This document shows, piece by piece, positions 1,355 through 60,628 of a stretch of DNA of 64,000 nt (within the stretch, counting starts at the first letter, position 1; every line of letters begins with the position of its first letter). The stretch is taken from assembly GCA_964016885.1 (NCBI GenBank), contig OZ024743.1:111414001-111478000 (forward strand), in the 5' to 3' direction. This stretch comes from Eledone cirrhosa (lineage: Eukaryota). The notes below the pieces were generated by a model. It did not search any database and was not told where the DNA came from. It saw only the letters and a program-made list of their open reading frames with translations. The position numbers and the translations under genes are program-made.

Positions 1355-1851
1355 TAGGAATAACAGAAAGCATATAAATTTATTAAAACTAAAGTGACGA
1401 CCAATACTAAATATAAAGTTTGTTAAGAGAAAAATAATACAAAATTTATGGAATCTTAAAGTATTAATAATGTATCAATCAGTAGGATTATTTCTACATA
1501 TTTGGCCTAAGGTTTTCTGCAATTTCTAATACTGTGTACGCATGCATACACACATATACACATCTATATGTGTGTCGACGTACAAGTAGATGCATGTGTG
1601 AATATTACTTTCGGGTAAGATTATGTATATGCGATGTGTAGTAATCGACTACTACTTTCCATATGCATATTTGATTGTGTATATATATATATATATATAT
1701 ATATATATATATATATATATATATATATATATATAAATACATATACATATATATATATATATATATATATATATATATATATATATATATATATATATAT
1801 ATATATGAAATATGAAATATAAGAATCAAAGAACTGTTCAAAACATTATTG

Positions 1852-1898
1852 TGCTTACAGCTGTTTCCTCCAAACCGAGGTTTGGATTCTTCGGAGCA
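1852..1898 (-). ncRNA. Minimal type-I hammerhead ribozyme variant (inverted pLTR copy)
   Basis: Reverse complement of 5997-6043. Confidence 0.75.
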
Positions 1899-3343
1899 AT
1901 TTATTAATGCATGGACAGTTATATGACCTCCTTTTCAGCCGAGAGACATACCGATACATATTCAAACATTGATACATATTCAAACATTGTGGGTCAACAT
2001 TCTTTACAGAATTTAGAGTGGCAGTACACACTTCGAGATTACATTCATATTAAGAGGTACAATCAAAAATCAAAATACAGGTTAAAATACAACATGAAGA
2101 TAAGCGGTTATATAGTGCAAATGTTATATGTGTGGCACGCATGTGCGTCTTGTTTATATAGTGTGGCAGAGAGATATGTGTGGTAGAGGCACTTAGGTAG
2201 GTAAACAAGAGTGTTAGGTTGGTAGATCTGGTGGCAAATTCTTTATATGATTGATATAGTCTGTGTGTGGAGAAATATTATAAGCATTAAAAATAGTGCA
2301 AGCATTAAAAGTGTTAAAAGTATTGGAGATGCACAGCGCAGGGAAGTCAAGTATTTCATGTACTTCGGCATTTTCATGGTCAGGGGAGTGTATTTATCGA
2401 TTATATGCCCTTCACATAATCCACGACAATCCAGTTAGAGATCGTAGTCTGGTGTTCTTTAGTTCAATACAGGAGGCTGTTACGTTTCGAGAAACGCCAT
2501 TGAATACCGCCCGGAAGTGTGTGTGTGGCTAAGGGGAGTTAATGCATGCGGGGAGGTAACTCTGGGGTTTCTATACCTAGCTATTAAAATGTGTCCCAAT
2601 ATAGACCCTAATTTCTATGGTGATGCGCATCCTCCAAGAGAAATTTTTTAAAGCATAAAGTGTATTAACTATAGAGTAGTTTAATTAAGTTATGCTGAAG
2701 GTGATCATATTATTATGGTGATTAACCCATCTTAAGGTGCTACAAATGGAAATTATAGATGATGAGCGAGGATTCTAAATTAATGATCTCTGTGGTTGTA
2801 GTCTGCTCATATGACCAGGCGCGGTGATTGCAGGATTGCCTCAGGACCCAATGATCTCTGGTAAGATCTGGGTCATCGCTTGCTACATTGGATGTCGAGA
2901 GATAATCATCCCCAGGCCGGCCAGAGGTCAATCCGCAGTCCTCGCGACCCCTCTCTGACCGTCAGATCATCCATATATGTACAACCCGCACGGCTGTTGC
3001 AATGCATTCACTCACTGCGCTCAGCAGCCCGGTCCTACTGGTCAACAGCGTTACTAGATTAAAACATTTTTCATCTGTCTAAGGAAGGTGTTTCCTCTGC
3101 ACAACACTATCCAACCGATCAATTCATGCTCAAATTACCCTTAGAGCGGTGTAGTGCCGTTCAAGTGGGTGGATGTTGTCACATCTGACGTAGAGGTATA
3201 AATGGGTATTCTCCCTGCGAAGGGTTCCAGAGGGATGTCGTTGTTTGTGTTATAATAGATCAGTTAGTGTTGGGTATGTAGTATAAGGTGTGTCTCTGGT
3301 GTTTGATGCTAGATCTGGTGTTTGATGCTAGATGTGGTGTTAG

Positions 3344-4558
3344 CCTAACGAGAAACTTATTTACGTAGATACCAAGTCTAATCACCCTAGATCAATATTA
3401 AACTCTATCTCTACGGGGGTGTCCAATAGAATCTCTAGTCTGTCCTATCACGCAAACATATTTAGCAAAAACTCACAATATTACAATCAAGCATTAGCTA
3501 GCTCCGGCCATAATATAGAAATTGAGTTCCTACCTAAGAAAACACATAGCTACAACATCATCTCGCACAACATATCCATGAGGAAACCTAATAATAGGAA
3601 TAGCAACCACAAGCGCACCAAAGCGGAGGGTGCCACCGGAAGTAACCATTACCATGGAAACTACTGTGGGGCCTTAGGAGGAAGCAACACACCAAACACT
3701 AAAAGCAAAAATAGAAGAAGAAATAATACATTTTTCAACCCTCCTTTCAACCTAAATGTCTCCACCAACATACCTAGGGCTTTCTTCTCACTACTAGATA
3801 AAAACTTCCCTCTAGGACACAAGTACCACAACCTCTTAAACAAAAACACCATTAAAATCTCATACTCTACGACGCCTAACTTAGCATACCACATAGCTGG
3901 CAGCAATAATAGTAAAATTAGTTCTTACTTCCAACAAACAAAATCACAACGGGATGCAAACCCTCTAAATACCACTGTAGCAAGCAACCATAGCAACGGC
4001 AGTAACAATAGAAATAACACTAGTATAAGTAATAACACCAGGGTTGTCAACCCGAACACCCAAAATCCTATAACTACCACACAGACCTCCGCACTGCATT
4101 ATAACCAGCGGACTAACGCACAGGATAATTGTAACTGTAGAGCTAATAGAACCTGCCCTTTAGATAAAAAATGCCTAACCAAGGATATCATATACTCATG
4201 CACCGTCACAACTAGCAACTCTTCAGAAACCTATGTAGGCTCCACTTCTAACTGCTTCAAAATCAGATATAATTCGCACATCCACTCGTTCAAAAAGCAC
4301 AACCTAGCAAACTCCACCTCACTTTCTAGCTACATACACTATCTAAAATCTAAAAATAAACCATACACACTCAAATGGGAAGTGATAGGCAGCGCGACCT
4401 CGTACAAACCACCTAATAAATTTTGTAACCTCTGTATACTAGAGACACACAATATTATCTTCTCCAACCGAAACCTACTTAATAAAAAATCTGAGGTGTT
4501 TGCAACTTGCCAGCACCGCTTCAGACAATCCTTCCAAAACTTTAAGCCCAATATATAG
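3344..4558 (+). CDS. C-terminal part of PLE polyprotein: RT thumb/linker plus GIY-YIG endonuclease (5'-truncated, frame open from 3344)
   Basis: PNEKLIYVDTKSNHP...FFNPPF...CNCRANRTCPLDKKCL...IIY...YVGST...FKIRYNSH...CNLCILE...LLNKKSE...CQH; PLE endonuclease motifs (clade uncertain, possibly Nematis-type). Confidence 0.88.
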   Translation, partial: PNEKLIYVDTKSNHPRSILNSISTGVSNRISSLSYHANIFSKNSQYYNQALASSGHNIEIEFLPKKTHSYNIISHNISMRKPNNRNSNHKRTKAEGATGSNHYHGNYCGALGGSNTPNTKSKNRRRNNTFFNPPFNLNVSTNIPRAFFSLLDKNFPLGHKYHNLLNKNTIKISYSTTPNLAYHIAGSNNSKISSYFQQTKSQRDANPLNTTVASNHSNGSNNRNNTSISNNTRVVNPNTQNPITTTQTSALHYNQRTNAQDNCNCRANRTCPLDKKCLTKDIIYSCTVTTSNSSETYVGSTSNCFKIRYNSHIHSFKKHNLANSTSLSSYIHYLKSKNKPYTLKWEVIGSATSYKPPNKFCNLCILETHNIIFSNRNLLNKKSEVFATCQHRFRQSFQNFKPNI

Positions 4559-58332: not shown

Positions 58333-58440
58333 ATAGGAAAGAGTAGGACCCCGACGGCTGAGCTCGAGCCGTTTCGACGGCTAATTCTGGAATACGGTGC
58401 GTTATGGTCCATCTGTTTCCTTACAACATTTCCTTTGTTA
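58333..58440 (+). mobile_element. GC-rich hairpin mini-element copy 4: inverted arm only plus partial tail
   Basis: ataggaaagagtaggaccccgacggctgagctcgagccgtttcgacggctaattctgga joined to ggtgcgttatggtcc...ttcctttgtta. Confidence 0.8.
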
Positions 58441-58767
58441 TATATATATATATATATATATATATATATAAATATATATGTATATATATATATATATATA
58501 TATATATATATATATATATATATATATATATATATACATAATATATGTATATATATATATATATATATATATGTATATGTATATATATATATATGTCTGT
58601 ATATGTATAGATGTGTATATATATATATACATATGTGTGTGTGTATATATATATATATGTATATATATAGAGAGAGATAGAGAGATATACATACATACAT
58701 ATATATATATATATATATATATATATATATATATATATATATATATATATATATAAATATATATATA

Positions 58768-60628
58768 TAGTATTAAGGATACTACTTATGGTTATGTATA
58801 TAAAAAAAACCTTTTATAGTTATATATATTTTAAACTCTAAATAGTGAAAGACAGTAATTCATTACTATCTTATTACCAGTAAGATAAATAGCTCAATGT
58901 AATAACATCAGTTGTCTTACAGAGCAGTTATATAGAAATGGCATGAACCTCCTTAATAAAAAACCTCCTTCATAAAAAATCAGAAGTGTTCGCGTCTTGC
59001 CAACACCGCTTCCGACACTATTTCTAAAACATTAAACCCAATATATAACAATGTCAGACTTGAAGACGTCACCACCTCTAGCAACTAGCATCAGGGGCTC
59101 ACCTTACACCTCATCTCCACACCCATTAATCCACTTCAACGCAAATAGTGGCACCCTAATAGTACCTTTTACCCTAGATATATCCCCATGTACTTCTACT
59201 TTTGGTATATTGGCCTTGAATTACTTGGACTACATTGCACTAATATATAATTAATGTAAACTGTAGGCCCTGAATTGGTTGTGCTAACATTGTCCTGTGC
59301 ATGGAGTGCCAGCATAGGATAGATAGAAGATTAAGTAATTAATTTATTAAAAGGGCTATATATTCTATATGCTGAGTACAATGAATTATGTACAGGTGAT
59401 ATATGAGTTATGAGTATATGTATGGCTTGATGGCCAGATTAGTGTCTTTGTATGAGAGAATTGATCTCTGGACCACCCTGGTGATATTTAACTTTGCCAT
59501 GCATTCAGACATACAATGACCCAGAGCTTACCGGGAGTTATATATAGTAATAAGACCCTGCCACACTTACAAAGATCATTGATTTGGAGGTCTGACTATT
59601 CTTGTAGAATGTTCGGTTGTGGCACTCCATGATAGAAGGTAATCATCCTGATATGAACACCTTTAGTACTTCTTGATAGACTACACTGTAATTTATAGAT
59701 AAGATACTCAAATGTAGAAATTGTTTGTAACCTTATATGATAGGGACTCATTTGAAACACCATTAATGTACTTTAGGATAATAAATTTAACTATGAAAAT
59801 CAGGTAGTTACCTCCCCTTACGCATTAACTCCCATTATGCATTAACTCCCCTTAGTCACACACACACTTCCGGAATATAATACAATGTCATCTCTCACAA
59901 CAAAAACAACCTGATCTATGAATCAAATTAAGGAACGACAAGATATGATTTATAACATGGTTCACCAGGCACCCAATGTTGAATCATCGTGGATTGTGTG
60001 ATGGACATGTAGTCTATAAATTGTGTTTCCTGGATTGTATGAGTGGTGGTGGGTGCGAGGAGAGTGGTGGTGTTGTGCTTCTCATTTGTAATATTTTTGA
60101 TATTTTTGGTGTTTCTCTACAAACGGGCTTATATATCGTATAGGTGTGTGTGAAAAATGCTTTAACAATACAGCCCCCATGATGCTATTGATTGTCTGTT
60201 TTAACTGCTTGTTTTTACATGTAACAATCTGCCGCACTATAATCTTGTATAAATAAGACACGCGTGCATGCCACACGTGAGACTGTTTCATACACTGACT
60301 ATTCTAAACTTTCCTCTTGCTTTATCTTCATAAACTGCCAATGTTTTACTTTTATTTTAATTTTAATTTTAATTTTAACTTTAATTTTGTCCATTAATAT
60401 GACTGTAACCTTTGTATGTAAATTGCCATACTATATTATTATGATGGATGTCAACCCACTGTGGGTCAATATATACATATGTTTTTTATATGTCTCTTGT
60501 GTTGAAAAGGAGGTCAAGTATGTAAAAAAATCACTAAATAGTTGCTCCGAAGAATCCAAATCTCGGTTTGGAGGAAACAATTGTAAGCAAATAAAGGATT
60601 TAAACTGAACTTTGATTCATGTAATTTA
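58768..60628. mobile_element. PLE related to 1810-6249: tail on the minus strand (58768-58933) joined to plus-strand EN C-terminus and pLTR (58945-60628)
   Basis: 58768-58933 resembles the reverse complement of 6084-6249; 58945-59100 resembles 4468-4615 (KKSEVFASCQHRF..KPNI*); hammerhead at 60542. Confidence 0.85.
60542..60590 (+). ncRNA. Minimal hammerhead variant
   Basis: ttgct-CCGAAGA-a-tccaaat(ctcg)gtttgga-g-GAAAC-aatt-GTA-agcaa; palindrome ACAATTGT. Confidence 0.8.

Follow-up and report, generated by a model that had tools for sequence, protein, structure and literature searches.

Penelope-like elements (PLEs) in a 64,000-nt stretch of the Eledone cirrhosa genome (GenBank assembly GCA_964016885.1, contig OZ024743.1, positions 111,414,001 to 111,478,000; the window) carry a one-sided tail and an inverted arm, and we found that the two arms of an insertion almost always begin at two different fixed sites, one at the boundary of the tail (site P) and the other at the end of the tail (site D). 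In samples from the same 3.0-Gb, AT-rich genome, 79 of 80 two-armed insertions combined one P end with one D end; the remaining one was D+D, and none was P+P. This total includes only samples drawn without selection for end type. We consider it probable, at roughly three chances in four, that the one-each pairing arises because both cut ends of a (TA)n target prime reverse transcription, one at each fixed site, with the products joined head-to-head at variable places, a mechanism suggested by genomic footprints. The families are designated A (1810-6249), B (58768-60628), C (6276-6732), D (9491-9697), E (26277-26586), F (35075-35620) and G (the GC-hairpin family); site D is distinct from family D, and copies were gathered from this genome.

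Family A was sampled through a 30-mer 5' of P that has 2036 exact matches genome-wide. The first 100 matches on C1 yielded 68 insertions, all of which were mapped, and this sample is blind to end type provided that one arm spans the 30-mer. Head-to-head arms were present in 43 of the 68 insertions, and both outer ends were fixed in 38 of these. All 38 were P+D (p = 4e-12 under independent 50:50 choice), and neither P+P nor D+D occurred among the 68 insertions. The other five head-to-head copies comprised two that started with a P stub and then jumped and three with an arm that started elsewhere or was broken. In addition, inspection by eye showed a second start, reduced to a stub of between a few and 30 nt, in eight copies that appear one-armed.

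For families C to G, we selected 30 loci each by their tails, sought an inverted arm within 1.5 kb and scored it by local alignment. As an initial annotation of the window had proposed, the start of the inverted arm coincided with the tail boundary beyond chance (C, 13/13; D, 10/11; E, 19/22; F, 10/15; G, 22/25), and three of the misses in family F were internal tandem junctions or had no TA flank. Because tail-selected loci cannot reveal P+P, three further end-pair tests were made. Among the first 100 matches of the family D 30-mer, which has 24161 exact matches, 27 inverted pairs were found, 26 of them P+D and one D+D. For families C and E, full-length copies were picked by an internal junction, and the missing end type was written down beforehand for 12; ten of these far ends were readable and all ten were correct, while two could not be resolved. 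One of eight further C/E copies had both ends readable (L346) and was P+D, bringing the C/E total to 11/11. Tandem copies of family G with both ends readable were P+D in 4/4 cases, and two forecast G far ends (L496 and L497) were absent at the predicted place because the copies are internally deleted; both resolved within the first loci. Thus, the outer ends are fixed rather than scattered while the inner junctions vary, and priming at fixed sites by both target ends, as first suggested by the annotation, is supported. The start of the inverted arm, which it took for the internal site, is indeed internal, but site D is internal too, so P is not the sole one.

Arms ranged from a few nucleotides to 4.9 kb in family A and to more than 14 kb across families, and nearly every inner joint differed between copies. 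The D arm covered the P arm in 19 of the 38 family A pairs, and in the other 19 the P arm reached further 5', with a lead exceeding 35 nt in 16 pairs; in eight of the 38, the D arm was shorter than the tail and ended short of P, so that the arms had no sequence in common. Starts were reiterated in family A: one to four extra copies of the first 7 to 10 nt stood beside the (TA)n at 12/49 P ends and 2/52 D ends. Since the start template is a short permuted repeat, slipping and restarting would account for this reiteration, in a manner akin to repeat addition by telomerase. Together, the frequent extension of P arms further 5' and the reiterated starts indicate that both ends are likely priming sites. 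Inner joints overlapped by at least 2 nt, as estimated by BLAST, in 22 of 43 family A copies, compared with 17% for random joints, and filler was present in 11. Target-site duplications are unreadable because the insertion lies inside (TA)n.

The families, which had been called unrelated, fall into two clades only, five being Hydra-type and one Neptune-type; B is a relative of A at 69 to 82% identity, and C and E are related to each other (z = 7). The natural tandem unit of family A is 4189 nt long with an 832-codon frame, and that of family G is 3531 nt with a 748-codon Hydra-type frame. By motifs, one open reading frame (ORF) with a PLE reverse transcriptase (RT) and a GIY-YIG domain was found in A and G, in a frameshifted copy of family D and as fragments in C and E. 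Family F has no ORF and is a non-coding tandem with both of the hairpins described below. Partial tandems (pseudo-long terminal repeats, pLTRs), an inverted 5'-truncated copy and a one-sided tail were found, as in endonuclease-positive (EN+) PLEs. Families A and G have the motif set of the Hydra clade (an RW(K)-like motif, DKT, a CxCX5C linker, no CCHH, and CxxC/CxH at the C terminus), C has RW, DKT and the linker, and E has RW and DKT. On these protein motifs A, C, E and G are provisionally assigned to the Hydra clade, and B with them as an old A. No solved structure matched the clade profile. Hammerhead-like motifs, predicted by pattern and by eye, and a (TA)n target occur in the Hydra-type families, with variant cores in A and G. 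Family D, with a CX2-5CxxC linker, two cysteines inside GIY-YIG and a DKG-like motif, is putatively Neptune-type, motifs favoring Neptune over Nematis. Given this classification, the one-each rule covers two clades and not six unrelated families. A Neptune-type ORF (L395) and a Hydra-type ORF (L063) contain long asparagine-rich stretches, a feature that PMC3846280 describes for rotifer Penelope elements.

A short TA tract is present at the boundary, as annotated, but it measures only 3 to 6 nt and is found at the D end as well; a TA match of this length to the target was seen by eye at all 13 P and D sites viewed. The tract had been proposed to determine the site. Alternating TA runs of at least 5 nt occur 29 times in the 4189-nt unit of family A, and a tract this common cannot fix it. 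What accompanies the sites in Hydra-type families is a predicted, covarying hairpin motif, RCUC-X-loop-X'-2-nt bulge-GAGY, which is duplicated 7 to 13 nt 3' of the last fixed base at both sites. The family A unit contains it twice, at P+4 and D+7, with 0.08 occurrences expected, and it was also present at P of B, C, E, F and G and at site D of F. We forecast that the motif would follow site D in three families whose sequence beyond that site was then unseen (C, E and G), and it was present in all three, with a UA bulge in G. For the Hydra-type elements, it is therefore likely that the TA tract sets the register and the duplicated RNA hairpin sets the site. The available text of PMC8557442 describes no RNA motif at tail ends, and its supplement contains neither "hairpin" nor "stem-loop." Family D has a 7-nt word common to its two sites. 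The motif also lies between the element end and the ORF start in a further Hydra-type family (L088:1-200), which often flanks A copies and is connected with a 3' region of C type.

The hairpin recurs in metagenome relatives with 31 to 42% protein identity. A profile search gave 78 loci, 67 with the ORF start region and 57 with at least 120 nt upstream. Between the hammerhead-like core and the ORF, one motif was present in 41/57 and two in 22/57, and matches on the element strand outnumbered those on the opposite strand 63 to 3. The order in these loci was hammerhead-like core, P motif, D motif and ORF. Among 33 comparisons of element ends, 10 ran into contig ends, and 14 of the other 23 stopped 0 to 4 nt 5' of the motif; some of these ends sat not in (TA)n but in (ATTT)n, (GTAT)n or (TACA)n. 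In an anchored count that demanded no pairing, used because MAFFT set the hairpin 5' strands out of register, the fifth hairpin pair (n = 94) was C-G in 54, U-A in 31, C-A in 3, U-G in 1 and another combination in 5, and the next two pairs were above their margins too (55/88 versus 37 and 46/58 versus 24). RNAalifold called no pairs on the hairpin alignment. By site, the fifth pair was U-A in 14 of 25 P hairpins and C-G in 22 of 25 D hairpins, and this conserved difference hints at a built-in asymmetry.

We then compared the two arms of single insertions. Family A arms differed at 10 of 2684 informative sites, compared with 54912 of 315320 (17%) between insertions, and shared 37 private variants in 39 comparisons. 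The window's own copy, whose arms are mosaics, differed at 7/186 sites, and the other 38 comparisons gave 3/2498. In family D the corresponding figures were 71/1455 (4.9%) within and 15902/90989 (17.5%) between insertions. In most cases the two arms thus have a single molecule or a single source locus as their origin, although the template pair may be two RNAs of that locus; arm identity would look the same after fold-back copying or gene conversion, so a double reading of one RNA is not proven. The D+D exception in family D (L394), whose arms differ at a subfamily site, and the window's family A copy look like products of two templates. Next to this exception lies a minimal two-armed family D insertion, with a P arm of ~30 nt and a D end of 15 nt (L394:620-700).

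First- and second-round segments, where an arm exceeds one unit, showed no differences at 479 informative sites in nine family A comparisons. In one arm of a single family G insertion of ~16.4 kb (D...P; L494-L495, G000:C1:437198000-437215499), more than four 3531-nt units followed one another, nearly identical in sequence; the two whole units and one partial unit that were compared differed by 0 to 1 nt. A similar array lies at C1:91.47-91.49 Mb; its right end was looked for and not found. Because both hairpins lie near the 5' end of the unit and arms exceed one unit, the template would be a circle or a long tandem RNA; the circular template of PMC4209133 fits, and a tandem RNA or later expansion is also compatible.

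A stop at the predicted hammerhead cut of family A was considered and rejected, as no pile-up was seen (2080 matches for the word 3' of the cut versus 2036 spanning it). In the short family G copies (L201-L230, and 53467-53658 in the window), arms stop 50 to 63 nt 5' of P (29/30 D arms and 19/23 P arms), although the query may favor this subfamily. A three-way junction resembling a hammerhead holds these stops in its large stem II loop, 35 to 45 nt past the predicted cut, and its core is a variant one, apparently of the U3-A8 kind.

Other routes to such insertions were weighed. Palindromic DNA could form first, by self-priming on an antisense or sense template, and then be joined to (TA)n once the endonuclease has cut it in the TA tracts at P and D, the tail being left by endonuclease resolution. 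Self-priming has been proposed in PMC3846280 and a tail arising through EN resolution in PMC8557442; moreover, 10/38 joints are near-symmetric, several family D joints coincide with one natural palindrome, and pairing of the hairpin is conceivable in single-stranded DNA as well. We nevertheless regard this route as unlikely: the reiterated start units at P and D indicate polymerase starts and not cut ends, 28/38 joints are asymmetric and eight lack shared arm sequence, tail ends map to RT starts in vitro according to PMC11167929, and the route gives no account of one P and one D. A fixed, pre-formed palindrome resembling a miniature inverted-repeat transposable element (MITE), or an assembly artifact, is hardly credible. 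Short family G copies are alike in length, but arm lengths and inner joints vary, and these are therefore not MITEs; uniform length, identical inner joints and symmetric terminal repeats were not found, the elements have RT-endonuclease ORFs, and the same ends occur in contigs of other organisms.

It is also improbable, and somewhat more so than the palindrome, that the second end primes on a separate RNA paired by hammerhead dimerization, the explanation offered in the initial annotation. Hammerhead-like motifs do lie 5' of P, minimal PLE hammerheads may act as dimers according to PMC4209133, and besides the window's family A copy some family D copies have arms that differ at 3 to 7 sites. 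As a rule, however, the explanation is not supported, given the near-identity of the arms; the lineage variants that arms share speak against hammerhead dimers that bring in a second RNA at random, and the reading favored here has no need of such dimers. Furthermore, two free RNAs with both sites each would yield P+P and D+D, and PMC8557442 reports tails and inversions in Naiads, which lack canonical hammerheads. If instead site D alone primed and the inverted arm were a snap-back cDNA copy stopping at P, near-identical arms and the 19/38 pairs in which the D arm covers the P arm would be explained, but the reiteration at P and the pairs in which the P arm extends further would not; the 16/38 longer P arms and the 8/38 D arms short of P exclude snap-back as the general route, and we hold it to be very unlikely.

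Several observations weigh against priming at both cut ends or against the hairpin as its guide. No second start was recognizable in 17 of the 68 family A insertions, and in three an arm began elsewhere. One clear D+D insertion exists in family D (L394) and one probable D+D in family G (L204). Near-symmetric joints, within 35 nt of symmetry, numbered 10 of 38, compared with 1.8 expected in permutations; fold-back explains these equally well, and fold-back or a shared RNA end contributes to them. There was no apparent excess of D arms stopping at P, 3/38 ending within 25 nt of it, and therefore no signature of a roadblock at P, a candidate that we set aside. Family D lacks the hairpin motif (0/94 at P and 0/7 at D) and yet follows the one-each rule. 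Single hairpins are weak, with RNAfold often favoring other folds, and the metagenome contigs come from few studies, so that the covariation counts are not independent. The whole evidence base is genomic, and the in vitro work in PMC11167929 sees no difference between top and bottom strands in the start site, a result compatible with symmetric cutting in which coupling is not shown.

We still favor priming at both ends, since the one-each pairing makes it likely that both (TA)n cut ends prime copying, one per point. The GIY-YIG domain would nick both strands of the microsatellite, and two RT units would sit on one RNA, a circle or long tandem, with one bulged hairpin holding each. Each target 3' end would then pair, over 3 to 6 nt, with the UA-rich sequence immediately 5' of its hairpin, and starts would sometimes slip and restart. 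The two cDNAs may halt at variable places and anneal by microhomology, each templating the second strand of the other; where arms overlap, the shorter could come from re-reading of the same RNA with strand displacement, or the longer cDNA could fold back and give rise to it. A bolder scheme, to which we would give slightly less than even odds, is that twin priming is the normal, programmed route of endonuclease-bearing PLEs, in which an RT dimer on two hairpin copies of one circular RNA lets each subunit take one cut end, with telomerase-like restarts on a short permuted template and no further second-strand priming.

In L1 twin priming, as reportedly set out by Ostertag and Kazazian in 2001, the second target end primes internally and head-to-head cDNAs join by microhomology. 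Such events are said to be occasional, with a variable internal site, the poly(A) end as the first primer, non-overlapping arms and a target-site duplication. The genomic signature of two priming target ends and a microhomology joint is found here too, but both sites are fixed and internal, the structure is seen in most copies, and arms overlap by up to kilobases.

A closer parallel is PAc, a Poseidon PLE of Anolis carolinensis, for which PMC11167929 reports two internal RT starts bounding the tail and cutting and extension of both strands at an AT-rich target, all features shared with the elements studied here. As in the present elements, the PAc starts lie close to the pLTR-ORF junction and a hammerhead; a protein dimer is also predicted in that study, which puts the starts in an AC-rich stem loop. 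It does not link the two starts to the two ends of one insertion, and it states that the target has no homology to the start site. PAc tails measure 30 to 40 nt, compared with 56 to 163 nt here, and the one-each rule in vivo, the 3- to 6-nt target match and the duplicated bulged hairpin set the present elements apart. Hydra clade C-terminal EN+ PLEs, as characterized in PMC8557442, share with them RW, DKT, the CxCX5C linker, the lack of CCHH, hammerheads, (TA)n targets, and CxxC and CxH flanking the E and N residues; units there are below 3 kb, compared with 3.5 to 4.6 kb here, and the tail is ascribed to endonuclease resolution. Circular-template models of PLEs and non-LTR retrozymes invoke hammerhead-flanked units and tandems longer than one unit (PMC4209133, PMC7761336, 10.64898/2026.07.22.740005). 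Family F and the deleted G units of 230 to 960 nt resemble non-autonomous tandems of the retrozyme type. The papers on these models, in their available text, name no priming site. PMC7761336 sees no conserved motif by which the repeats could be tied to a partner; in F, by contrast, both hairpins are present. Publications thus already cover tails, inverted copies and a pair of internal start sites, while the one-each pairing and the hairpin were not found in the literature searched, which did not include figures S1 and S2 of PMC11167929, and appear new relative to it.

Window features of the PLE families (positions in the 64,000-nt window)
Feature	Position	Strand	Remarks
Family A inverted arm	1810..3322	-	Outer end at P; preceded by one extra start-unit copy beside (TA)n
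Family A direct arm	3323..6249	+	5'-truncated; ends at site D in (TA)n
Hydra-type ORF, 3' half	3344..4558	+	Covers RT thumb, CxCX5C linker and GIY-YIG-like end; L063 has the whole 832-codon frame
Minimal hammerhead-like motif, variant core (at 6001)	5995..6045	+	Predicted cut ~48 nt 5' of P
Site P, family A	6082..6086	+	5-nt TA match to target
Predicted bulged hairpin 3' of P, family A	6090..6123	+	
Family A tail, stretch from P to D	6087..6249	+	163 nt
Family C two-armed copy, Hydra-type	6279..6731	+	Hairpin 6644-6669
Family D two-armed copy, Neptune-type	9495..9695	+	Without Hydra hairpin
Family E two-armed copy, Hydra-type	26277..26584	+	P arm exceeds D arm in length
Family F copy, non-coding tandem unit of ~500 nt	35076..35614	-	Hairpin 35127-35152
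Family G (GC-hairpin) copy	34851..35054	-	
Family G copy	53200..53400	-	
Family G copy	53467..53658	-	Hairpin 53515-53538; parent unit 3531 nt with Hydra-type ORF
Family G copy	58336..58438	+	D arm ~47 nt, stops short of P
Family B, older relative of A	58770..60626	+	Long P arm runs to 60626; core of hammerhead-like motif at 60547
Family B short D arm	58770-58939	-	Hairpin 58892-58925

Within the window, the six tail-plus-inverted-arm structures described in the initial annotation were all recovered, every one flanked by (TA)n tracts, and its six boundary motifs were found in the sequence. The inverted arm does carry sequence absent from the direct arm at 26277, 35075 and 58333. The tail and inverted arm at 58768 do not abut exactly, since the tail arm overruns the boundary by about 10 nt. 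Taken as a whole, that interpretation is partly supported. The left arm of family A (1810-3322) is 98.8% complementary to 4578-6085, and tails are 96 to 101 nt in C, 56 to 60 in D, 85 to 92 in E, 84 to 89 in F and 78 to 82 in G. A search against Rfam returned no hammerhead or other family at the sites, and Pfam gave no GIY-YIG match on the window's family A fragment.

The window also contains a decayed PLE with a C-terminal GIY-YIG domain (Pfam PF01541) on the minus strand, together with rearranged partial copies (27777-32800 and 45849-48225), and an extra (TA)n-associated family at 21000-21123 and 21820-21943, the second copy of which has the hairpin motif on the minus strand (21876-21906). 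Other features are a long interspersed element (LINE)-type reverse transcriptase fragment (PF00078; 7457-7879), a U6 small nuclear RNA-like sequence at 35724-35833 (minus strand; 72.6 bits, above the Rfam gathering score) that is probably a pseudogene, and a dispersed ~180-nt family, 82 to 90% identical and of a size like that of short interspersed elements (786-971, 1175-1355, 15861-16071, 20285-20685, 32075-32229 and 39734-39922).

How PLEs make their tails, inverted copies and second strand is posed as an open question in PMC8557442 and partly answered in PMC11167929. Tails and inversions, features known in PLEs for a long time, would follow from twin priming at paired sites. The one-each rule accounts for tails, inverted copies and the second strand at once, holds in two clades and gave correct forecasts of ends not yet seen. 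As a defined cis element with conservation in distant Hydra-type elements and in a non-coding partner, the duplicated hairpin can serve to annotate element ends. Since telomerase has PLE RTs as its sister group, internal starts that are defined by structure and show reiteration have a bearing on the origin of telomerase-like template use.

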